Source of the DNA: Candidatus Binatia bacterium
GTDB taxonomy: Bacteria > Desulfobacterota > Binatia > HRBIN30
NCBI GenBank assembly: GCA_038245295.1
Contig: JBBRSP010000009.1
Location: forward strand, 160,001-224,000
Length of the DNA: 64,000 nt
Reading direction: 5' to 3'
Below, piece after piece: positions 9,172 to 64,000 of this stretch. The notes below the pieces were generated by a model. The model saw nothing but the letters and a program-made list of their open reading frames with translations. It was not told where the DNA came from and ran no database searches. The number at the start of each line of letters is the position of its first letter. Position 1 is the stretch's first letter. Position numbers and translations under genes: made by a program.

Positions 9172-11454
9172 CTACGCGTAACGCGCCGCATTCAACGCCG
9201 ACCCTGAGCGGAACCAATCGAGCTGCGACCGGCTATAGGTATGGCGCAGAGCCAGCCGTTCCGTCGTCCCATCCTGATGTCGGATCAGGCACTCGACATC
9301 CTTGCCCGGCGAAAGCGCGGCGAGATCGACCAGACTGAGACGGTCGGTCTCGCAGATGCGCCCGTAGTCAGCCGGATCGATAAACGTCAGCGCCAGCAAA
9401 CCCTGCTTCTTCAGATTCGACTCGTGAATCCGCGCAAAGCCGCGCGCGATGACCGCGGCACCACCGAGAAGACGCGGGCTCAGGGCGGCATGCTCCCGGC
9501 TGCTGCCTTCACCGTAGTTCTTGTCGCCGATGATCACCCACTTCAGCCCGGCAGCCTTGTAGTGTCGCGCCACACGCGAGATCGATTCGCCCGTTTGACC
9601 AGTGACGACGTTGATGCCCTTGCCCACTTCGGTGGTGAACGCGTTCACCGCACCAAGCAGGAGGTTGTCGCTGAACTTGTCGAGATGGCCGCGATAACGC
9701 AGCCATGGACCGGCCGGTGAGATCTGGTCCGTCGTCGTCTTGCCGCGCGTCTTGATGAGCACCGGCATATCGATGAAGTCTTTCCCATCCCATGCCGGCC
9801 ACGGCTCCATCAGCTGGATACGTTCACTGTGCGGATCCACGGCGAGGCGGACACTTTGCCCATCCGCCGGCGGAGCAATGTAGGCAGAGCGGCCGCGCTC
9901 GAACCCCTTGGCGGGAACCTCCGGTGCCGGCCGCGGCGCCTCCAGTCGGAACGATTCGCCGTCGGCGCCGGTGAGTGCGTCGGTCAGCGGATTGAAGCTC
10001 AAGCGGCCGGCCACGGCGAAGGCGGTGACGATCTCCGGACTAGCGATGAAGTTCATCGTCGTCGGTTTGCCGTCATTACGCCCCGGGAAGTTGCGATTAT
10101 ACGATGTGACGATTGCATTGGTCTCGGCGACCTCCTGGCTGCGCCGCCACTGGCCGATACAGGGGCCGCAGGCATTGGCGAGAACCAGACCGTTGATGTC
10201 CTGCAGCGATTGCATCTGGCCATCGCGCTCGATCGTCGCGCGCACCTGCTCGCTCCCGGGTGTGACAAAGAAGGGAGCCGCGGTCTTGAGCCCGTGGGCT
10301 TTCGCCTGCTCCGCAACATCGGCGGAACGGCTCATGTCTTCGTAGGAAGAGTTGGTGCAACTGCCGATGAGGGCAGCGGACACGCGCTCCGGGAAATGGT
10401 TCGCCGCAACCTCGGCGGCAAAACGCGAGATTGGACGAGCGCGATCCGGTGAATGTGGCCCGACAACGTACGGCTCGAGCTTCGCGAGATCGAGATACAC
10501 AACACGGTCATAGTGTCGCTCCGGATCGGCTTCGACCTCGGCGTCGGGTTCGAGAAGATGCTGGTGACGCCTTACGTGTTCGACCAATGCGCCACGCCCG
10601 GTTGCTTCAAGGTATTTGAACATCCGTTCGTCAGCGGCGAACAACGAGGTCGTAGCGCCAAGCTCGGCTCCCATGTTGGTGATCGTTGCTTTGCCGGTAG
10701 CGCTGATCGTGCGCGCGCCGGGGCCGATGTACTCGACGATGGCGTTCGTTCCGCCCGCTACCGTCAGCTGCTCCGCGACATACAAGATGACGTCCTTGGG
10801 CGCCGTCCAGCCGCTCATCGCACCGGTCAAGTAAACCGCGATGTGCCGTGGGTAGAGCAACTCCCATGGCAGTCCGGAGATCACTTCAACCGCGTCAGCA
10901 CCACCGACGCCGACGGCGCATGCCCCCAGGCCACCCGCGTTTGGCGTGTGTGAATCGGTGCCGATGATCATTGCTCCGGGAAAGGCGTAGTTCTCCAGGA
11001 CCACCTGATGAATGATGCCGGCACCGGGAGCCCAGAAACCGGCGCCGAAACGCGCCGCGGCCGAGCGTAGGAAGTCGTAGACCTCGCTATTTTCCGCCAA
11101 CGAGGCGTTGAGATCGTCGCCAGCTCCAGTGCGTGCCTGGATTAAGTGATCGCAGTGGATGGTAGTCGGGACGGCGACGCTGTCGCGCCGCGTCTGCATG
11201 AATTGCAACATGCCGGTCTGCCCGAGAACGTCCTGGAACACGACGCGGTCCGGCCGCAGCGAAAGATAACTGTCGCCGGGAATCATCTCCTGTGTTGCGG
11301 GATCGTCGAGATGCCCGAGGAGGAGTTTGTCGGATAGCGTCAGCGGCCGCTTCAGGCGGCGCCGGACGACGTCGAGATTGTGCGCCATGGTCTCGTAGAC
11401 GTTGGCGACCATCTCCGGGGTGGATGCGATTGTGACCATTGCTCTGTCCTCCAT
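9172..11454 (-). CDS. Aconitate hydratase (mitochondrial-type)
   Basis: HCDHLIQA, GTDSHTPNAGG, IGSCTNSSYED, ANACGPCIGQW and NYGEGSSREHAA. Confidence 0.95.
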   Translation of the reverse strand: MEDRAMVTIASTPEMVANVYETMAHNLDVVRRRLKRPLTLSDKLLLGHLDDPATQEMIPGDSYLSLRPDRVVFQDVLGQTGMLQFMQTRRDSVAVPTTIHCDHLIQARTGAGDDLNASLAENSEVYDFLRSAAARFGAGFWAPGAGIIHQVVLENYAFPGAMIIGTDSHTPNAGGLGACAVGVGGADAVEVISGLPWELLYPRHIAVYLTGAMSGWTAPKDVILYVAEQLTVAGGTNAIVEYIGPGARTISATGKATITNMGAELGATTSLFAADERMFKYLEATGRGALVEHVRRHQHLLEPDAEVEADPERHYDRVVYLDLAKLEPYVVGPHSPDRARPISRFAAEVAANHFPERVSAALIGSCTNSSYEDMSRSADVAEQAKAHGLKTAAPFFVTPGSEQVRATIERDGQMQSLQDINGLVLANACGPCIGQWRRSQEVAETNAIVTSYNRNFPGRNDGKPTTMNFIASPEIVTAFAVAGRLSFNPLTDALTGADGESFRLEAPRPAPEVPAKGFERGRSAYIAPPADGQSVRLAVDPHSERIQLMEPWPAWDGKDFIDMPVLIKTRGKTTTDQISPAGPWLRYRGHLDKFSDNLLLGAVNAFTTEVGKGINVVTGQTGESISRVARHYKAAGLKWVIIGDKNYGEGSSREHAALSPRLLGGAAVIARGFARIHESNLKKQGLLALTFIDPADYGRICETDRLSLVDLAALSPGKDVECLIRHQDGTTERLALRHTYSRSQLDWFRSGSALNAARYA

Positions 11455-54794: not shown

Positions 54795-55432
54795 TCAAGC
54801 CTCGCCAGTCTGGTTTCCGCGCGGGTGTTGGCGGACGAAGGCCAGGCCGCGATTGCCGAAATGCCCGTGCCCTGCCATGCGCCGGGCCTGTTGGCTCAGC
54901 GCCCGGTCGAGGAGAAAGCCGCAGCGGGCCAGCGCTTCGACCCAGTATTCCTCGGGCTGGCAGTTGACGTGGTGCCAACCCGGCTGACCCGGGGCGGCGT
55001 AGGTCATGAACACGTACTTGCGGCTGGAGGCAAAGGTGGCCAGAAAGTGGTCCGCGAAGCGCTCCTCGACGTGCTCGACGAACTCACAGCTCCACACCAC
55101 GTCGAAGGTCCGCCGCGGGACGAACGGGCCGCGCACGAAGTCGTGTACGATATGTGATTCCGGAACGACACTGTCGCGCTTTGCCTGTGGACTTCCATCA
55201 ACCGCGAGAACCTCGCAACCGGCATCACGAAAGAAGCGGGCGCAGTGACCTTCTCCACAGCCGACGTCGAGAAGCGTGCGTGCCCCGAGCTCGGCGACCA
55301 TCCAGCGCCACATCTGCGGGTACCACGTGGCGGGATCGCCGTGTCGCAACGACGAAACCTCGGGGTCGGCGCGGATGTAACCGCCAAGGTGGCCTGCGTC
55401 GATGTTGGTTACGGGGGTGATGACCGAGTCAC
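54795..55432 (-). CDS. Class I SAM-dependent methyltransferase; apparent 1-nt frameshift near the start
   Basis: LDVGCGEG, VDGS, EFVEHVEE and GWHHVNCQ. The open frame extends to HLGGYI upstream of TTG 55349. The coupled GTG at 55432 is one base out of frame at a C5 run. Confidence 0.8.
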
Positions 55433-57171
55433 GCCGGCGCCCCGAGACCGACCGCGGCTTCCCACGCCGCCACCGTGCGCAGCCGTCCCAACCCGTACCG
55501 ACCGAGGGTGCTCGGATCGCCGCCGACGTAGAACAACGCCTGGAGGCGGCGAAGCATTTCCTGCGTGCGCTCCGTCTGCCACCGAGTGCTTTTTGCTTCC
55601 CAGACCTTGTGCCGATTGCCGTCGGGATAGTTCGCGTAGTCGAGATGCCAGACCTGAATGTCGTCCGGCAGGTACATGTCGTAACCGTGTGTGAACGTGC
55701 GCAACGCGAGCGGCGCCTCGTGCCCCGCGTGGATCATCGCCGCGTCCTCCGGCACCTCGCGAATCCATGCCCCGTGGGTGAAGACGAAGTTGCAGCAGAT
55801 GAGCCCGGTGCTCTGGTGACGGTCGGACTTACGCTGCGGGGACATCTGGATGTCAATCCAGCCGTCGGGCTCGATGCGCCTGCAGGTCAGCAAGGGAACG
55901 CCGTCGTACTCCGTGCCCGCCCACGGCAGAACGACGCGACCCTGCGCATCGAAGGTGAAAGGGGGCGAGCTGGTGGTGAGCAGCGGCTTGCGTCCCGGCT
56001 TGCCTTCGAGTTGGTCGATGAGGTTCTCGTCCCAACCCGGCGCCAGATAGCTGTGCGAGTCGAGGAGCAGGTGATACTCCTCGCCGGCGTAGAGCTTCTG
56101 TATGTCGGCGCGAGCCCAGCCGTAGCCGAGACTGGCGTAGTACGGATAGCGGCGAATGCGGAAGCGTGGGTCGTCGCCATAGTCGTCGAGCTGCTCGTCC
56201 TCGTCGGCTTGCCAACAGATGCCGAAGGTCAAACGCTCCGGGTGTTGCGCTTGCCGGAGCAGGGAGTCGATCGTGAAGGGGAGGAACTGATCTCGGTAGG
56301 AGGCGATCGAAACGAAGATGCGCGGCCGAGCCGCTGGCTGGGGCGCGCGCGCCTTGAAGAAGCGTTGGTGGAACTCGAGGATGTGGTCGGCGCTCAAGCT
56401 GCGGAAATGGTAGTGGAAGGCGTTGGGCACCGGCCGATGCTCGTGCGGCGGCGCCTTCACATAGTCCACCGTGCCCTGTGGGCAGGGGAAAAAGATGTGG
56501 TCGGGGGTGAGCGGCCGTTGCTGCGCGATGTCCTCGAGGAAGGACGCCAGTCGAATCCGGCTCATGTGCGCCGCGATCCAATGTCCCATCGTGACATCGT
56601 CACGAAATCCGAAGGCGTTGCCTTCGATGATCTCGTTCCTGTGGCGCCCCAGCTCGCGCGCAACGTCGACCGACAGGATCATGGAGGCGCCGCTGACGAA
56701 CGGCCCCGTCCCCGACACGTCTATCCCGATAGCGCCGGCCACGACGCGCTGGGGAGACAGCGAATCTGCATAGCGGGCCAAGGTGTGCTGATCGACGTAA
56801 CTAGCAGCACACACCGTGTAGATCAGGTCGTACCTGTCGGTTGCGGCGAGATGCGCGAAGGCGATCAGGCGTTTGCGTAAGATACAATCCACCTGCCGGC
56901 TCAACTGATCGGCGCAGCCGGCGATCAGCACGCCATCGATCTCGCAGATACCGTCGTCCGCAACGACCGGTACCGCTCCACCAATGTGGCGCGATAGCAC
57001 GTCGTACGCCTGTGGATCGCCGGGGTTGCCGTAGAGGTAGTAGATATCGAGGCCAGGCACCGTCGTACTGCCCCAGGTGCGCCGGATCGCCTCGATCAGC
57101 TCATCGTACGGGGGTGAAGCGCATGCGAGTACTACGATGGCGATGCGGTTCGACATTCTGGTTGGGCTCAC
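55429..57171 (-). CDS. Bifunctional glycosyltransferase: GT31-like domain plus GT60 (Skp1 Gnt1-like Hyp GlcNAc-transferase) domain
   Basis: N-terminal IRRTWG, SGASMILS.D and DDVTMG. C-terminal IFVSIASYRD, A.HPERL.FG, SLGYGWAR, LLDSH....GWD and LALRTFTHGYD. Confidence 0.8.
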   Translation of the reverse strand: MSPTRMSNRIAIVVLACASPPYDELIEAIRRTWGSTTVPGLDIYYLYGNPGDPQAYDVLSRHIGGAVPVVADDGICEIDGVLIAGCADQLSRQVDCILRKRLIAFAHLAATDRYDLIYTVCAASYVDQHTLARYADSLSPQRVVAGAIGIDVSGTGPFVSGASMILSVDVARELGRHRNEIIEGNAFGFRDDVTMGHWIAAHMSRIRLASFLEDIAQQRPLTPDHIFFPCPQGTVDYVKAPPHEHRPVPNAFHYHFRSLSADHILEFHQRFFKARAPQPAARPRIFVSIASYRDQFLPFTIDSLLRQAQHPERLTFGICWQADEDEQLDDYGDDPRFRIRRYPYYASLGYGWARADIQKLYAGEEYHLLLDSHSYLAPGWDENLIDQLEGKPGRKPLLTTSSPPFTFDAQGRVVLPWAGTEYDGVPLLTCRRIEPDGWIDIQMSPQRKSDRHQSTGLICCNFVFTHGAWIREVPEDAAMIHAGHEAPLALRTFTHGYDMYLPDDIQVWHLDYANYPDGNRHKVWEAKSTRWQTERTQEMLRRLQALFYVGGDPSTLGRYGLGRLRTVAAWEAAVGLGAPA

Positions 57172-57214: not shown

Positions 57215-58354
57215 TCATGCCGGCTCCAGGTCCAGCGCTCCGACGTTGTGGAGCTGATCGATCACCGACTGGAGGCTGCCGCCCAAGGCGCCGGGCGCCA
57301 ACTGGAAACGGTTTTCGAGTCGGCCCTGGAGGTCCGCCAGGTCGAGCTTACCGTCACAGAGCTCCCAAATGGCGGCCGCAGAGGGGTTTAGGGAGAGCGT
57401 GTCGGAGCGACCGGGTATCTCGAGCAGGGTGCGGTCGAGGACGCGGCCGACACGCACGCCGGGACGCCGCCGCGGCCGCAGCATAGCGTGGTCGCCACCT
57501 GCCGCGCGCCGCGCGCAGTACTCTTCGAGCAGGGCAAGGACCTCGTGTCCGCTTCCGGAGCTCGCGCGTCCGGGGTCGACGCTTGTCCACGGCTGGTAGA
57601 GATGCTGGTTCCACACACTGTCGCCGTCGGCCGACTCGATAGGCTGACCGTAATGGATCAATACCGCCTGGCTTGGGCCCGCCCCCGTGTCGACGCCGAG
57701 ATCGGTCACGGCGTGCGCGATACGAGCCTCGGCGGCGGCGATCGCATAGGCCATGTCGGCAACGCGGTCGCTCTTGCCGTCGACTCCGGCCGCCATTTCC
57801 GCCCGGATGATGCTCATTAGCTCCAGCCACCTGGCAGCCATCCGGCGCAAGTCGCTGGCGTGGATGAGCACCGGCAGGGTCACGGGCGGGAGCGCCAGCC
57901 TGCAGTCGACGCAGAAGTTCTCGAGGAACGCCAGGTTGGGCCCCAACCCGAAGTGCTCCGACCCTGATACCCCGCTGCCGTTGTCAGGCAAGGCCGGCCA
58001 GGCGGTCGCCCGCGCTTGCCCCGGCCCGACCTCGGTTTCCACCGAAGCGCGGAACACGCTATCCGGCCGGACCAGCAGGATCGTACCGTCGATGCGCTCC
58101 GTGAACAGCCACTCGAGCAGCGCCGCGGCGGTGTTGTAGGGTGGGTAGCTGTCGCCGGTGTACGGGTGCGGCGACCAGCACGAGGTGGCAACGACACGCG
58201 CGAGGCGCTGGCGCGGGAGCGGCTCTCCCGGTGCGACGGCGGTCAAGCGGACCAACTCCCCCGGCTGCCGAACGCGGCCCCACGAGTACTCGAGGAGCTC
58301 GGAGCGCCACTGCGCCGCATCGTCGGCTATCGTGCAGAAGACGGTGTAGATCAC
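57215..58354 (-). CDS. GT96/GT95-like (plant peptidyl-Ser/Hyp glycosyltransferase-like) domain fused to C-terminal PqqD/RRE
   Basis: IYTVF..QW....YSW.RVRQPG..RL and WSPHPYTGDSYPPYN. C-terminal LNPSAAAIWELCDG...L...G. The GTG overlaps the upstream TGA. Confidence 0.75.
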   Translation of the reverse strand: MIYTVFCTIADDAAQWRSELLEYSWGRVRQPGELVRLTAVAPGEPLPRQRLARVVATSCWSPHPYTGDSYPPYNTAAALLEWLFTERIDGTILLVRPDSVFRASVETEVGPGQARATAWPALPDNGSGVSGSEHFGLGPNLAFLENFCVDCRLALPPVTLPVLIHASDLRRMAARWLELMSIIRAEMAAGVDGKSDRVADMAYAIAAAEARIAHAVTDLGVDTGAGPSQAVLIHYGQPIESADGDSVWNQHLYQPWTSVDPGRASSGSGHEVLALLEEYCARRAAGGDHAMLRPRRRPGVRVGRVLDRTLLEIPGRSDTLSLNPSAAAIWELCDGKLDLADLQGRLENRFQLAPGALGGSLQSVIDQLHNVGALDLEPA

Positions 58355-59301
58355 CCGCCGCCTCCTGCTGCGACGGGAAGACCCACGAACTGAGGGGCGA
58401 CCACACCACCGCGGAAATGGCCCCAGCCGAGGCGCGTGTCGGGATCGGGCTGGGCGGCGCGGTGTAACCACGTCGTGACGGCGAAACGACTGTCGGCAAA
58501 CTCGCCGGACGGACAACGAACCGGCATCGCCTCGTGAAACTCGGCGCTGCGGAAGACCACCATGCGATTGGAAATCGGCTCGACGCTCTCGAAGGTTGCG
58601 GCCGCTCGTCTCTCGCCGTCCTCCTCGATGCAGTCGTACAGTCGCAGCTCGCCCCCGGCGAAGCCGCGCGGCTGGCGGTGGACGTAGTAGATACACGACA
58701 GTTCTCGCGGGCACGTCGGCGACTCATCGGCATGCACCTTGTAGAACTGGCGGCTGCGCGCCGCGGTGAGCTGCGACTCCACCCCGCTCAAAGGTACAAC
58801 AGGTACACCCAAGGTCCTGGCCAGCAGCGGATACCAGACGAGCAGCCGATTCTGCAGCATGCGCGCATGAGCCGAGTCGCCGAAGCGCGGAATCACGAGG
58901 TTCTGCCGGTGCCCTGCCGTGTCTCCGGCGACCGTGCCGGTCTCGAACTGTTCCTCCGATGCCACCGCAAGGACAAGCATGTCCGCGTGTTCCGCCGGGC
59001 TCAAGAAGTCATCGATGGCCATGTAGTGGGCGCGGCGAATGATGATCGGTTGTGCCCCCCCCGTCGCGTGAGGCTGCACCAGCACCGGGGGTTCGCTGAT
59101 CACCGAGACGACCTGGTCGGCGCGGAACGTGCACGCCACGGTTCCCTCTTGCAGCGGCAATTGGATCAGGTCGCGCGACGTCGGGGACGCCAGCGCCGCA
59201 AACAGGGCGCGCAGCTCGGCGGCGTCCTCCGCCAGTGCCACCTCGTGGGTGTGGCCGCCGGCGAGCTGGACACGCAGTCGAATGGTGCGGACAGCGTTCA
59301 T
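58351..59301 (-). CDS. 2OG-Fe(II) oxygenase, PHD/PhyA-type prolyl 4-hydroxylase-like
   Basis: YKVHAD (HxD), GGELRLY, FHE.MPV and SRFAVTTW; ATGA overlap with the upstream gene. Confidence 0.85.
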   Translation of the reverse strand: MNAVRTIRLRVQLAGGHTHEVALAEDAAELRALFAALASPTSRDLIQLPLQEGTVACTFRADQVVSVISEPPVLVQPHATGGAQPIIIRRAHYMAIDDFLSPAEHADMLVLAVASEEQFETGTVAGDTAGHRQNLVIPRFGDSAHARMLQNRLLVWYPLLARTLGVPVVPLSGVESQLTAARSRQFYKVHADESPTCPRELSCIYYVHRQPRGFAGGELRLYDCIEEDGERRAAATFESVEPISNRMVVFRSAEFHEAMPVRCPSGEFADSRFAVTTWLHRAAQPDPDTRLGWGHFRGGVVAPQFVGLPVAAGGGG

Positions 59302-61337
59302 GACCTCACCGTCGGATCGCCCGGATCGTCCAGATCGCGTATTCCGTGCAGATCTTGCCAATCCGACAGTAAGCGCACAGCCTCCTGAGCATCGCTGAAT
59401 CGCAGTTGCGCCGCCGGCCGACGTTCGGCGACCCGGCACAGGCGCTCGACGGCGCGATTACGGTCGATTTGGAAGTCGAGTGATGCAGTGATCAGTTCCG
59501 CAACCGCTGCCGCGGGTGACAGCGACACGAGAGCCGTGCGCCCGCACAGCTGCTGGACTGCAATCACGATGCTCGCCAGCGGAGTGGGCGTCGGGCGGCG
59601 GCCGCCGTCACCGGCGCTAGAGTCCTCGGCGCCGAACGGCAGCACCAGGTTGTCCTGGACGCGAATGCCGACCACGTCCGACTCGAGCAAGTCCCAGCCC
59701 GCGGACTGCATGGCACTGCCGATCGAGTCGTCGCCGTCGGCGAGATCGCCGACGATCACCAGTGCCTCCCCGGCGCGCGTAAAGGCAGCCCCGTGCAACC
59801 ACGCATGCCGCGGCCGCGCTCGGGTCAGGATCGGTACGGCGAGGCGCTTCACAAGGCCGCCGAGCTGGGCTGCGTCCGCTACCTCGCCAAGGTGTTTCCC
59901 GTCGTGCACGACGACATGGTTGGTGGTGCCGGAGACGATTTCGAATTCGGTGATGACATTGCACGGTAGCTGCCCCGGACCGCCGTCGAAGCTTGCGCCG
60001 ACCCGAGACAACACATGCGGAGTGCGGCTGCGGATGGCGATCTGCAGGTTCTCAAAGGTCAAGTAGACGCTGTCCAGCGCTGCTGCTCCGGAGTGAGCGC
60101 GTATGACCAAGGGCGGGTGGGCGGATATATTCGCCGGCGCGCCGGTGGCGAGGCTCTGCGGGGTGAGGAAACTCTCGGGCCACTCGCGCATCCACGCCGG
60201 GTTGATGCGCTGGGTGACGCGATTCCAAGAATACGGCCCCTCGGACTCTTCGATCATGACGCCGCGATCGAGCCCGACGCAGTCGCTGATGGCGTGTCGA
60301 CCACGCTGGAGCGAAACACCGGTGGCGGGTATCTCGTTCCACAGAAACCGGAAGGGCTCGTGCTTGCCGCGATTACCCCGGTAACGCTGGATGAGCGAGG
60401 TGAACGTGCTGGTCATCGTTCCGATGAAGTTCTTCGACTCGGCGGCGACCAGTTGCGAGAGGTAGGCCAGGCTCAGGCTGTCTTGCTGCGGCAGCTGCGT
60501 GAAGTCGGCCGCGTAGGCATCGAGAATGTGCCAATCGATGAAGAAATGACGCGGATAGGCGAGCGTCAGCGGTCGGAAGAAGGGATCGTCACGCTCGTCG
60601 GTGACGATGACGAGGGGATCGTTGCGGTCGAAGATCTGGTCGAGCGCCTCGATCGCGTCCTCCGGCTGCCGGTCGAGCGTGGTGACTCCGTAGGTGACTT
60701 TGAAATCGCCGCGCCGCATATGCACGGCGTTGAACGAGCCGAGGTCCGCCGCCACTCGTTTGGCCAGATCGGCGAACGGTGGCTTGGGGCGCATGTTTTC
60801 GAGAAGGCGATGTACCGAACGCCGCAACTCGGCGTCGAGATAGAACTGGTAAGAGTAGAAGCAAAGATTGTTGCGGCGCCGTGGTTGCGACGGATCGGTG
60901 CCCGGTACAAACGGACTCTCCGAGAGCCTCAGCACGGGGAATCGGTCGAGGTCTTCGCCGACGGTGAGCCAGTGCTCGCGCCCCCGGGCGAAGCCGCGTG
61001 CCTGTGCAGAAGACAGGTCCAGGGTGCACGGGAAGTAGAAGGCCACATCGCCGAGAGAGTGGTCGGTGAGCTCGAGTGCCTCGAGACCCTCCAGATCGAC
61101 CGACGCGCTGTCGGCCCACGGCACCGGCAGGTCGATGAGGTCGGTGATCCGGCTCGGGCGCTCGTTGCTCACCCGGCCGTTGTAGGAAACGATGTTGGCC
61201 GGAGGAGAGATGTTCCCTTCGAGCACCAGAAAGCGATTGGTCAGGTGCGCCAGGATCACGCCGATCTCGATCGACATGACGCCGTTGCTCAGTCCGGCGT
61301 TGCCGGACATGTAGTTGGTGTAAGAGAGATGTCTCAT
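59298..61337 (-). CDS. O-fucosyltransferase-like (GT-B) domain fused to a degenerate HPr-kinase-like domain
   Basis: GLSN...LAHLTNRFLVL, AVHMRRGDF, IVTDE and FIGTMTSTFT. C-terminal LHGAAF..AGEALVIVG...GWDLLESD. Confidence 0.78.
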   Translation of the reverse strand: MRHLSYTNYMSGNAGLSNGVMSIEIGVILAHLTNRFLVLEGNISPPANIVSYNGRVSNERPSRITDLIDLPVPWADSASVDLEGLEALELTDHSLGDVAFYFPCTLDLSSAQARGFARGREHWLTVGEDLDRFPVLRLSESPFVPGTDPSQPRRRNNLCFYSYQFYLDAELRRSVHRLLENMRPKPPFADLAKRVAADLGSFNAVHMRRGDFKVTYGVTTLDRQPEDAIEALDQIFDRNDPLVIVTDERDDPFFRPLTLAYPRHFFIDWHILDAYAADFTQLPQQDSLSLAYLSQLVAAESKNFIGTMTSTFTSLIQRYRGNRGKHEPFRFLWNEIPATGVSLQRGRHAISDCVGLDRGVMIEESEGPYSWNRVTQRINPAWMREWPESFLTPQSLATGAPANISAHPPLVIRAHSGAAALDSVYLTFENLQIAIRSRTPHVLSRVGASFDGGPGQLPCNVITEFEIVSGTTNHVVVHDGKHLGEVADAAQLGGLVKRLAVPILTRARPRHAWLHGAAFTRAGEALVIVGDLADGDDSIGSAMQSAGWDLLESDVVGIRVQDNLVLPFGAEDSSAGDGGRRPTPTPLASIVIAVQQLCGRTALVSLSPAAAVAELITASLDFQIDRNRAVERLCRVAERRPAAQLRFSDAQEAVRLLSDWQDLHGIRDLDDPGDPTVRS

Positions 61338-61939
61338 GGCGCTGATCGAGTCGGCGCGATCGGGTGGTAGTGGACGAAGATGGCAGCGTAGTAGTCGCCG
61401 TGCAGGGGATAAGGCCGCCCATGCGCGAGGCGGGTGCCCTCGTAGAAAACCAACTCGCCGGGTGCCAGATCGATCTGGCTCACCGTGTCATCGATGGTCT
61501 CGAGATGCAGCGGCCACGGGCTGTCGAGTGCGAAGTCGATGCAGATTGCCGAGCTGATGACGTGGGTCGAGCGATCCACGTGAGTAGAGAGGAAGGTGCC
61601 ACGCTGATAGACGCGTATGCCGTAACAATAGGAGACGGCCAGCCGCATGCCCGCCCAGGCCTCGTGCTCCGGCTGCAGATCCAGGGCGAGCTGTGCGTTG
61701 AACTCTTTGTCTTCATAGATGAGGGAAGGAATCGTACCGCGATCGGCATTGCCGATCTCATCGATCTTGCCCTCGGCACGAAAGCGGTCGGCGTTGATCT
61801 GCAGATGGTCGAGCAAGCGGGCGTGGACGGCAGGAGAGAGGGCGCCCCGGCAAAAGCCCAACCCCCGGTAGTGGGCCGCGGCTTGCATTTCACTCTGCCG
61901 TTGCCGGAGGAAGGCAGGGGCTTCGAGCTCGGGAATCAC
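61334..61939 (-). CDS. 2OG-Fe(II) oxygenase
   Basis: YGIRVY..G..L..HVD, WPL, YEG...HGRP and IFVHY. Confidence 0.82.
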   Translation of the reverse strand: MIPELEAPAFLRQRQSEMQAAAHYRGLGFCRGALSPAVHARLLDHLQINADRFRAEGKIDEIGNADRGTIPSLIYEDKEFNAQLALDLQPEHEAWAGMRLAVSYCYGIRVYQRGTFLSTHVDRSTHVISSAICIDFALDSPWPLHLETIDDTVSQIDLAPGELVFYEGTRLAHGRPYPLHGDYYAAIFVHYHPIAPTRSAP

Positions 61940-63255
61940 GACGCCTTCCTCCTGCCAACGGGACGCCGATGGTGCAGCCGGTTGCGGGCGTCCAGGGCCA
62001 GGTCGAAGAAGCGCCGCTCGAGATCGCTCGACGCCCGCGCCCGGTAGCTCTCGAGATCGGCGCGCAAGAGGTCACTTTGGGCGAAGAGGTGTTTGTGCCA
62101 TTCCGAGTTTCGAAACGGGCCGCCGGCGCCGTCGTTGACGTCGCAGTAGTAGTGGTAGAAGGAACCGTCCGGGATCGTCTCCTGCTGCGGCGGCAGCACG
62201 GCGAACTGGGGGGTGTCCAACAACTCGTAGTCGATGCCGTTGGGCGTCAGCGCCATGGCGAAGCACGCCATCTCCGCCACCCAGGTGGCCTGCCCCGGAA
62301 GGTCCAGGACCTTGCCCAGGAGGAACAGGATCTGTGCAGAGCGGAAGCAGTCGCGAATGACCTTCTGGTTGCGCACCGTTTGGCCGGTGACGAACACGGT
62401 CACACCGCCTGGCTTGAGCGGCGTTTCGCAGCCGATCGATGCCAGCAGCTTGTTCAGGTCGATACCGCGGCCGCACGACAAGCCGCTCATGAAAGGCTGT
62501 TCGCCGATCATGGCGTTCCGAGCGAGCGCGTTGCCGCTTGGAAACAGGTCTTCGCGCAGATTGCCGTAGAGGAAGATATCGGTGTCCATGAGGCACACGA
62601 CGTCGTCGGCTTCGACGTAGGGGGCGATCGCATGGAGCGCCTCGACGCGGTTCAGTGCCACGTGGCCGCCGCGGTTCTCCGAGAAGTCGATGTCATGGCT
62701 GCGCCCGTGGTTGGTCCCCGTGAGCGCTTGCACCCCGTAGACGTTCAAGAGACGGGTGAGCTGCGGGGAGAACGAGGTGTGATCGTTGCACACGACCACC
62801 GTGATGTCCCACCCGAGGGGCACCTGGCCTACGAGCGACTCGAAAAGAATCGCCAACTGCCAATGAAAATAAGCGCGGTCTTCAATGCCGAATACAAACC
62901 GAACTGGTGGGCGGCCGGCCACCTCCGCGGCGAGGACGGGGCTGGAGGCATCGGCACGGCCCGGGAGTGCCGCGGCGCCGGTTTCGATCAGGTTGAAATT
63001 GCGAAACGCCAGTAAGGCAGCGGCAACGTCGGCGAGAACATCAACCTCCGCTCCCGCATACTGCGCCCGTAACTCCGCAAGCATGCCGGGAAGCGTGTGG
63101 GTCCCGTCGCAGAGTTTCCAGATCGCCGCCCCGGATTCGTTCAACGCATAGGCCCGGCTCCCCTCCGGGAGCAGCAGCACTATCTCGTTGGCAACTTCAA
63201 AGGCCTTGATGTCGGAACACCGTCTCGGGCGCTGGGTACGTGCCAGATCGGTCAC
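61936..63255 (-). CDS. N-terminal PqqD/RRE fused to a GT95/GT96-like glycosyltransferase
   Basis: EIVLL...YALNESGAAIWKLCDG, then YFHWQ..LFES, NR, MDTD (DxD), WVAEM..FAMA and HY. Confidence 0.78.
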   Translation of the reverse strand: MTDLARTQRPRRCSDIKAFEVANEIVLLLPEGSRAYALNESGAAIWKLCDGTHTLPGMLAELRAQYAGAEVDVLADVAAALLAFRNFNLIETGAAALPGRADASSPVLAAEVAGRPPVRFVFGIEDRAYFHWQLAILFESLVGQVPLGWDITVVVCNDHTSFSPQLTRLLNVYGVQALTGTNHGRSHDIDFSENRGGHVALNRVEALHAIAPYVEADDVVCLMDTDIFLYGNLREDLFPSGNALARNAMIGEQPFMSGLSCGRGIDLNKLLASIGCETPLKPGGVTVFVTGQTVRNQKVIRDCFRSAQILFLLGKVLDLPGQATWVAEMACFAMALTPNGIDYELLDTPQFAVLPPQQETIPDGSFYHYYCDVNDGAGGPFRNSEWHKHLFAQSDLLRADLESYRARASSDLERRFFDLALDARNRLHHRRPVGRRKAS

Positions 63256-63264
63256 TCGTTCCGC

Positions 63265-63750
63265 TTACTTCTTTTCGTCCTCTTCTCGGCCTTTCGAGGG
63301 CTCGACGTGCTCGTCGTTGGCTGCGGTTGCGTTCTTCGCGCGGCGCCGCACGGCAGCCGCACCGACGCCGGCCAGACCAGCCGACAAGGCGGCGAGACCA
63401 CCGGCCGTCAAGGCCGGAGCTTTGACCATCGGAGCCATCGTCGGGGCCGGCGCCCTCGTCGGCGCCATCATCGTCGGCTCCATCATCGGCGCCATGGTCG
63501 GCGGCATGGTCGGCGGCACTTGACCGTGCGCGGTTCGCGCGCCAATGGCCGCACCAAACGGGATCGATAGGATCACAGGTGCTACCCAGGTGCTGAGTGC
63601 CGTTCGGCGTGTGATCGGCCTGGTCAACGCCGGCTGTGAAGCGGCGGACACACCGTGCTCGGAGTCGTCGCGCCCAGCGAGTTGGCGGCGCAGTTCCTCG
63701 ATCTCCGCCAGAAGCTGTTTCTTTGACTTGTCGTTGTCGCCTGACGCCAT
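63265..63750 (-). CDS. Putative precursor/substrate: RR-WxxPxI leader, Pro/Thr/Met repeat core, IPTL-CTERM-like anchor
   Basis: TRRTALSTWVAPVILSIP...AHG|QVPPTMPPTMAPMMEPTMMAPTRAPAPTMAPMVK|APALTAGG-TM-RRR; RBS GAGGAGG. Confidence 0.8.
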   Translation of the reverse strand: MASGDNDKSKKQLLAEIEELRRQLAGRDDSEHGVSAASQPALTRPITRRTALSTWVAPVILSIPFGAAIGARTAHGQVPPTMPPTMAPMMEPTMMAPTRAPAPTMAPMVKAPALTAGGLAALSAGLAGVGAAAVRRRAKNATAANDEHVEPSKGREEDEKK

Positions 63751-63891: not shown

Positions 63892-64000
63892 ATGTCCAGT
63901 CCACTGATCTTTGTCGCCATCGCGGCCTACAGCGACCCCGAGTTGCCGCGCACGCTGCGCGACGCGCTCGAGCAGGCACGTTGGCCGGATCGCCTTCGCT
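63892..64000 (+). CDS. Second GT60 (Gnt1-like) glycosyltransferase, runs off the right edge
   Basis: Manual translation MSSPLIFVAIAAYSDPELPRTLRDALEQARWPDRLR parallels IFVSIASYRD..LP.T...L.QA.HPERL in 55429-57171. Confidence 0.75.
   Translation, partial: MSSPLIFVAIAAYSDPELPRTLRDALEQARWPDRLR

Follow-up and report, generated by a model that had tools for sequence, protein, structure and literature searches.

The locus

The window (the whole stretch of DNA analysed, 64,000 nucleotides) carries a small precursor gene followed downstream, on the same strand, by seven genes whose predicted products include RRE-bearing glycosyltransferase proteins, putative oxygenases and a methyltransferase (Table 1). 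The first of these, here called RRE-GT, starts 9 nt past the precursor stop, and on the other side of the precursor gene lies a divergent Gnt1 homologue that is followed by a convergent NDP-sugar epimerase/dehydratase gene.

Table 1. Features of the precursor gene and its surroundings, with positions in the window.
Feature	Position	Strand	Basis
Precursor gene, 161 aa	63265..63750 (reads 63750->63265)	-	homologues, ribosome-binding site, GC3, codon differences
N-terminal coiled coil (residues 8-25), KSKKQLLAEIEELRRQL	63676..63729	-	profile matches to kinase-type N-termini
TRR	63604-63612	-	located in the reading frame
Twin-arginine motif, h-region and AxA-like site (TRRTAL…AHG↓Q), predicted Tat signal	63523..63612	-	consensus fit, conservation
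WVAPVI, predicted RRE recognition motif inside the h-region	63571..63588	-	invariance, motif class
Core, 34 aa, xxPT repeats	63421..63522	-	composition, TRF
APAL-hydrophobic-RRR tail with acidic end, IPTL-CTERM-like below cut-off	63268..63420	-	HMM score, hydropathy
APALTAGG-hydrophobic-RRR stretch	63340-63420	-	
RRE-GT, GT-A with intact DxD, HPAT-like	61936..63255	-	PqqD, AF2 fold, ESM
RRE1, within RRE-GT	62989-63186	-	
Putative 2OG-Fe(II) oxygenase A (2OGa)	61334..61939	-	invariant HxD…H motif only, 26 sequences
O-FucT-like domain fused to P-loop-less HPr-kinase-like domain	59298..61337	-	sub-cut-off profile, alignment
2OGb, PHD/PhyA-type prolyl-4-hydroxylase homologue	58351..59304	-	PDB sequence match, fold, ligands
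N-terminal domain of 2OGb, ~75 aa	59065-59301	-	
HPAT-like domain without conserved DxD, with C-terminal RRE	57215..58354	-	PF23452, ESM
Second RRE, within the preceding protein	57236-57415	-	
GT-like N-terminal domain fused to Gnt1/GT60 homologue (PF11397)	55429..57171	-	142.5 bits
SAM methyltransferase	54795..55349	-	adjoins the operon in several relatives too
Second Gnt1/GT60 homologue, divergent, 346 aa, extends beyond the window edge	63892..64000	+	profile scan

The precursor and its leader

The plus-strand frame over the precursor interval is interrupted by stops, and the minus-strand gene has a GAGGAGG ribosome-binding site, a GC3 of 0.76 and 10 homologues with E<=0.01. The protein had no match in Pfam, and neither a sigma-70 promoter nor a terminator was found around the gene. 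Four pairwise comparisons among relatives that are kin, over the 20 leader codons from TRRT on, revealed 40 synonymous and 3 non-synonymous codon differences, so that purifying selection on the predicted leader is visible. An earlier note on this DNA had read the frame as a tripartite precursor and had named lack of conservation among its refuting conditions, a check that the reading passes: leader, xxPT core and sorting-signal-like tail were all located on the minus-strand frame, relatives were found, leader codons are constrained and the operon context is kept.

The leader combines the N-terminal coiled coil, the twin arginine, WVAPVI and the AHG↓Q site that the note, which gave no strand, had described; all lie on the minus strand. 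All 11 phmmer homologues have R48, R49 and WVAPVIL unchanged, and an alignment of 37 leaders agrees on RR and WVAPVIL, its members having been chosen by that motif. Searching the leader profile against 1.84 billion proteins returned 135 matches, 101 with the motif, of which 100 keep the tryptophan, and 34 without it, many being coiled-coil-only. In 300 unselected genomes of the phylum the partial leader matches sit at positions 1 to about 40 of large proteins, nine of the ten scanned carrying PAS, GAF or HisKA; because these partial matches are N-terminal coiled coils of PAS/GAF/kinase proteins, a dimerisation helix is suggested for the precursor. In the source genome the bare RR…WxxPxI pattern by itself matches 9 of 62,861 six-frame stretches, and a search for a second leader-bearing gene in that genome found none. 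Longer fused forms of the precursor were likewise not found, in a weak search that also missed a known 331-aa orthologue.

The leader motif that binds in the RRE cleft is [Y/W]xxPx[L/V/I/F/A] for the lasso-type RRE class (excerpts of PMC13381572 and PMC12710340), and basic residues preceding WxxP can contact the RRE in the StsA case (PMC12710340, same excerpt). The proposal that WxxPxI belongs to this motif class held up, and the closest solved folds of the adjoining RREs are the lasso RREs TbiB1 and TfuB1. Compared with the PDB, the leader profile matched no lasso leader, only coiled coils.

The leader also resembles a Tat signal, as had been suggested. With the Tat consensus given as Z-R-R-x-phi-phi (excerpt of PMC13673990), TRRTAL fits and is followed by an h-region (KD 1.72 over 19 aa) and then AHG↓Q; of the 37 leaders, 34 have A-x-[AG] and 27 have [AG]Q. 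The n-region is not of the short, net-positive kind, being 47 aa long with 7 basic and 8 acidic residues (net charge about -1), and a strict TatP-style pattern fits only 25 of 36 leaders. TatC is encoded in the source genome, and is common anyway (11 of 14 control genomes, whatever the tail type).

The core repeat

The 34 residues of the core include 10 Pro, 5 Thr and 8 Met, as first reported, and start QVPPTMPPT. Its 12-nt periodicity is real though loose: the exact unit quoted in the note is found twice, and TRF revealed a period of 12 with 5.4 copies, 77% matches and a score of 67 at 63448-63515. The 12-nt period reflects, at codon level, a 4-residue xxPT unit. Across 36 precursors, with locus L053 excluded for its frameshifted precursor, cores range from about 20 to 230 aa with a median composition of 0.245 Pro and 0.20 Thr, and of 452 intervals between PT units, 305 have a spacing of 4. 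At least 3 PT units occur in 72 of the 86 library matches having a tail. In L053 itself (9579-10000, plus strand) the frame is apparently broken inside the PT repeat, by assembly error or slippage.

Methionine behaves differently from the PT unit. Its fraction is 0.24 in the window's core as against a median of 0.005, with none of the other cores in the set reaching 0.1, and it is thus an incidental, strain-specific filler at variable repeat positions. The guesses that it binds metal or acts as an oxidant sink consequently lose their family-level basis, Met richness being confined to this strain. About 60 other frames in the source genome carry PT repeats, mostly in large secreted-type proteins, several of which end in APxL-hydrophobic-RR; the PT repeat by itself is ordinary in this genome, and leader plus operon are the special part.

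C-terminal tails and candidate anchoring partners

The comparison of the tail with IPTL-CTERM sorting signals stood as a likeness, in that the tail is of the xPxL-hydrophobic-basic kind, but not as membership, since the TIGR04174 scores of 15.8 and 17.4 bits fall below the cut-off of 20.5. The window's hydrophobic stretch is Ala/Gly-rich and of moderate hydrophobicity only (KD 1.65 over 19 aa). IPTL-CTERM has been predicted on an experimentally identified S-layer protein (excerpt of PMC8671808). Among the 36 precursors the tails are xPxL-hydrophobic-basic in 12, PVELxxF in 11, GRCI…PDSR in 6 and TALFxFDD in 3, with none in 4, the types of L041 and L045 having been assigned by eye, and IFxDGFE is a further type seen. 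The tail is a swappable module of at least five types and is not conserved.

The source genome has three exosortase-family genes (PF09721), with XrtH scores of 75.4 and 68.5 bits against a cut-off of 86 and a third gene outside any NCBIfam family, and it has at least five other APxL-hydrophobic-RR tails. The link between XrtH and the tail is weak, since 20 of 23 genomes have XrtH-like genes whatever their tail type. Rhomboids are present in the source genome, but likewise in 14 of 14 control genomes.

The PVELxxF tail comes with its own company. An Ig-like small protein with an N-terminal hydrophobic segment is found in 8 of 8 PVEL-type genomes, drawn from only some three lineages, but in just 1 of the 15 other genomes, and it usually adjoins a C25 peptidase, often straight after the operon. 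C25 is the peptidase family to which the T9SS sortase PorU belongs, and we take PVELxxF to be the first strand of the partner's Ig type. The C25 peptidase together with an Ig-like protein seemingly without its first strand is a candidate new anchoring system outside Bacteroidota; the pair tracks PVELxxF at L055 (17715-20274, minus strand) and at L049, L051, L052, L054, L117, L118 and L120, and is absent from the source genome. A PVEL tail also terminates an unrelated secreted-type protein in one Acidobacteriota genome, and in an Acidobacteriota genome (G063) more RR-leader proteins, with Thr-rich cores and PVELQSFRID tails, lie at L109:455-1054 and L111:1084-1551.

Enzymes of the operon

PF05402 (PqqD) matches RRE1 with 49.6 bits and the second RRE with 37.0 bits, an RRE domain of the beta3-alpha3 fold being encoded next to the precursor. 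In the AF2 model of RRE-GT (pLDDT 90.5), RRE1 superposes on the lasso RRE TbiB1 with a TM of 0.85 and an rmsd of 1.7. The GT domain resembles the GT-A enzymes glycogenin and Skp1 galactosyltransferase (both Z 14.5), and D224-x-D226 and H368 are invariant in 116 sequences. Its likeness to HPAT is linked via ESM features only, there being no Pfam HPAT match for this active GT: HPAT is carried by 16-40% of members in the ESM Atlas clusters nearest to it. The ESM score is 0.97 for both HPAT-like GTs. Those nearest clusters are largely phage proteins (Uroviricota), a hint at phage-encoded GT relatives.

The second HPAT-like protein scores below the Pfam cut-off in the window, and PF23452 (HPAT) is found at E<=0.1 in 16 of 18 of its orthologues (best 2.9e-11). 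Because the DxD is not kept and several lineages have a shortened domain, this protein is likely inactive and would be a pseudo-enzyme scaffold. Aligned by HHalign, the two HPAT-like domains are colinear over 260 columns at a level that is not significant (probability 0.3, E 0.22). In the HPrK-like domain, 17 of 17 orthologues shown lack the P-loop GKT of an active kinase, which the outgroup L033 has; the O-FucT-like domain fused to it scores 27.1 bits against a cut-off of 31.5.

The best PDB sequence match of 2OGb is DdPhyA, the Dictyostelium PhyA (6T8M, E 4.4e-14), and its top folds are PPHD, PHD2 and PhyA. The iron/2OG ligands (HxD…H…R) are invariant in 22 sequences, and a PHD/PhyA-type enzyme is found in 19 of 20 full loci. 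For 2OGa there was no Pfam match and no meaningful PDB sequence match, and the latter also holds for the Gnt1 homologue, whose fused N-terminal domain is perhaps GT31-like. The ~75-aa beta-rich domain at the start of 2OGb recurs in the related loci L028, L046, L054, L055 and L074, where it sits on GT77-like proteins, methyltransferases and sulfotransferases, and is possibly a second docking module. Signal-like N-termini are absent from the operon enzymes, whose best 15-residue KD does not exceed 1.66, compared with 2.71 in a secreted control encoded nearby. In relatives the operon is flanked by many sulfotransferases and chain-extending GTs, and the accessory GTs, methyl- and sulfotransferases differ between lineages.

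Conservation and distribution

RRE-GT has 169 homologues, with PqqD on 116 of the 120 listed, and the closest, at 72-73% identity, include Ca. Binatia. The 61 loci fetched, some of them duplicates, are titled Ca. Binatia, Thermodesulfobacteriota, Ca. Nitrotoga, Polyangia/Myxococcales, Acidobacteriota, Thiohalocapsa, Lysobacterales and Halieaceae; the operon carriers include Luminiphilus syltensis NOR5-1B (Halieaceae), which we take to be cultured. The unpublished genome G044 underlies none of the claims made here. A near-full-length match was found in only 6 of 60 sampled relatives of the window, and the system is therefore patchy. Where it occurs, 18 of the 20 genome loci that extend at least 6.3 kb downstream share one gene order (Binatia, Myxococcota, Acidobacteriota, Pseudomonadota). 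Among the 43 loci that include 600 nt or more of upstream DNA, some of them duplicates, 39 have the precursor as the immediate upstream neighbour of RRE-GT, 38 found by script and one, L074, by eye. In two Acidobacteriota the precursor sits at the distal end of the operon, and one organism has two loci whose GT lacks an RRE. Of the 18 shorter loci, 11 show a truncated tail.

By its profile the leader is present, with 1-3 copies each, in all but one of the 23 GT-bearing genomes (22 of 23), and the one without it is the genome whose GT has no RRE; this count is partly circular, the profile having been built from most of these genomes, other than for genomes G063 and G072 and the extra copies. 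In 300 unselected genomes of the phylum, none among the matches listed covers the whole leader. A conserved leader motif, a variable core and co-occurrence with an RRE are together what marks an RRE-dependent RiPP, and all three are seen here.

Several related arrangements were seen elsewhere. At L149 (G071:C184) two tandem precursor copies lie beside a Gnt1 homologue outside the main operon. PqqD is fused in cis to an RR…PxI leader at L030 (7255-7869 and 9691-10278, minus strand), there with Ser/Gly/Thr repeats, and at L059 (11621-13027, minus strand), there with a secreted-type domain. A different cluster, L035 (2952-10005, plus strand), joins an RR…WTKPLI leader with SP/TP repeats to Gnt1 homologues, a discrete PqqD and a kinase-like domain. 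The source genome has a third PqqD (L104; contig C2, 311957-312442, minus strand), which ends in a lasso-leader-like segment among glycosyltransferase genes and is apparently a separate HPr-rel-A-like system.

Proposed pathway and alternatives

We propose RRE-guided cytoplasmic proline hydroxylation and O-glycosylation, followed by Tat export and surface anchoring, a sequence that as a whole has in our estimate about an even chance of being right. Its steps, for which our estimates are rough and mutually correlated, differ in strength. The precursor is very probably the dedicated substrate of the operon, and we predict with good confidence that its leader binds the RREs. RRE1 and RRE2 would clamp the WxxPxI leader and mask the Tat h-region until modification ends, in the manner of Tat proofreading. 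Meanwhile 2OGb, perhaps with 2OGa, would turn prolines of the (xxPT)n core into hydroxyproline (Hyp), which the Gnt1 homologues and the active HPAT-like enzyme would prime, possibly together with Thr. O-FucT-like, methyl-, sulfo- and lineage-specific glycosyltransferases may then extend and cap the chains, with the DxD-less HPAT domain and the P-loop-less kinase serving as scaffolds. In Toxoplasma, Gnt1 acts on hydroxyproline and depends on PhyA to make it (excerpt of PMC6939170). On balance the predicted Hyp-linked glycans on the core seem probable to us.

The most viable alternative keeps the same RRE, Tat and anchoring logic and places the sugars mainly on Thr/Ser, as in mucins, with the oxygenases modifying few prolines, or sugars. 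Thr is a credible acceptor because GT60 also includes a Trypanosoma polypeptide GlcNAc-transferase; Thr follows Pro in the conserved unit at the prevailing four-residue spacing, and the cores of certain RR-leader proteins in relatives are almost wholly Thr/Ser. We nonetheless consider it unlikely, as the PHD/PhyA-type enzyme keeps an intact HxD…H…R in nearly all full loci, eukaryotic HPAT and Gnt1 both act on Hyp, and certain cores (L088, L089) are ~50% Pro.

Since cytoplasmic enzymes reach the Pro-rich core only before export, the proposed pathway needs a post-translational export route. Tat, which tolerates unstructured hydrophilic cargo and C-terminal anchors (excerpt of PMC13673990), is the likely one: it would export the bulky glycopeptide, signal peptidase would cleave AHG↓Q, and an exosortase-H-like enzyme would handle the APAL tail, other lineages anchoring via other tails. 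Surface anchoring through the tail is predicted with the same leaning as the Hyp-linked glycans. The product might instead be exported and then released, or be the protein primer of a shed polysaccharide, the window's tail being vestigial or a temporary tether. This would suit the 4 of 36 precursors without a tail, the weakly hydrophobic, sub-cut-off tail of the window and the many sulfotransferases and chain-extending GTs around the operon, and it is made improbable by a lineage-specific tail kept in 32 of 36 precursors and by the PVELxxF tail tracking a membrane- or signal-bearing Ig-like partner and C25 peptidase. Slightly less probable still is that nothing is exported and that the protein is a membrane-tethered cytoplasmic scaffold gathering the RRE enzymes for another acceptor, with RR as part of the RRE epitope. 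The long acidic n-region, a dimerising coiled coil, two RREs with two pseudo-enzymes and the absence of a leader peptidase from the cluster genes scanned could all be so explained; an AxA-like site conserved after the h-region and the same tails on proteins with ordinary N-terminal signals speak for export, and a scaffold role would not account for a prolyl hydroxylase encoded next to a variable Pro-rich repeat. Oxygen sensing like that of PhyA-Gnt1-Skp1, with the peptide as signalling substrate and a coiled coil from PAS kinases as output, is very improbable: DdPhyA is the closest solved sequence relative, Skp1 galactosyltransferase is a structural neighbour of the GT and the coiled coil is like kinase N-termini, but the core is multivalent and very variable in length, the protein bears export and sorting signals, and no regulator is kept in the operon.

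A broader form of the proposed pathway, to which we give somewhat less than an even chance, is that RiPP machinery in several phyla makes a plant-style Hyp-rich surface glycoprotein with a dual-use leader and lineage-specific sorting. The motif would double as RRE handle and Tat h-region, so that RRE release licenses export, and the sorting systems would include an undescribed one of PVELxxF tail, C25 peptidase and strand-acceptor Ig protein. If true, this would be a RiPP class that yields a structural glycoprotein of the envelope and not a small bioactive molecule. Hydroxyproline O-glycosylation is a modification of plants, algae and protists; here would be a bacterial instance, and an operon-encoded bacterial counterpart to both the Skp1 and the extensin pathways. 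With soluble, leader-addressable HPAT, Gnt1 and PhyA homologues beside their likely substrate, both the chemistry of eukaryotic Hyp glycosylation and its evolutionary origin become testable, a portable leader directing glycosylation and Tat export would serve glyco-engineering, and the interchangeable tails reveal candidate new sorting signals.

Comparison with known systems

RRE-glycosyltransferase fusions are mentioned generically in excerpts of PMC7470986 and PMC12710340, and Figure S7 of the former, by its legend, shows an RRE-glycosyltransferase cluster, possibly this operon; the full-text literature, most subscription papers aside, yielded no description of this system. Lasso peptides and LPPs (excerpt of PMC13381572) are alike in leader motif class, RRE fold, HPrK-like domain and the pairing of a constant leader with a variable C-terminus. 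In contrast to them, the RREs here are GT-fused, the kinase P-loop is lost, the motif lies within a Tat-like signal, a repetitive core precedes a sorting tail, and the macrolactam synthase, B2 and the SpI leader peptidase are all absent from the cluster genes scanned. A lasso core begins with G, C, S or A and has an Asp/Glu ring acceptor at position 7-9; the QVPPTMPPT core breaks this rule, and with no macrolactam synthase or B2 peptidase found in the scanned cluster, we rejected a lasso peptide. HPr-rel-A (TIGR04352, TIGR04353) likewise places PqqD-family and HprK-related domains near glycosyltransferases, whereas here the score reaches 25.6 bits where the cut-off is 200, the HPrK-like domain has no P-loop and the genes scanned include no nucleotidyltransferase. 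IPTL-CTERM/exosortase H substrates (TIGR04174, TIGR04177) share the xPxL-hydrophobic-basic tail and XrtH-like genes, yet both scores are sub-cut-off here, a long acidic extension runs past the basic cluster, the passenger is a bare repeat and orthologues have other tails.

The eukaryotic parallels lie in the enzymes. The protist Skp1 pathway (excerpts of PMC7864055 and PMC6939170) also has a cytoplasmic PhyA-like hydroxylase and Gnt1-like transferases, and the operon pairs a PHD-type hydroxylase with intact iron/2OG ligands and GT60 in the same way. That pathway acts on one proline of a folded cytoplasmic protein, whereas here an RRE-guided operon would modify a likely exported multi-proline repeat, and no Skp1 gene lies within the operon. 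The plant analogy with an arabinogalactan peptide, which the note had drawn, gains support from the HPAT-like, PhyA-like and Gnt1-like enzymes encoded next door. Plants make Hyp glycans with P4H, HPAT/GT95 and SGT1/GT96, and their extensins, AG peptides and Hyp-arabinosylated peptides resemble the precursor in a Pro-rich repeat flanked by a signal at the N-terminus and an anchor signal at the C-terminus, as well as in HPAT-like enzymes. Plants modify in the ER/Golgi and use Sec and GPI, whereas here modification would be cytoplasmic and pre-export, on an xxPT repeat, with predicted Tat and a sortase-type tail. The parts are known, their combination falls outside the defining tests for lasso peptides, LPP/HPr-rel-A and IPTL-CTERM, and the system is real and conserved, and apparently undescribed.
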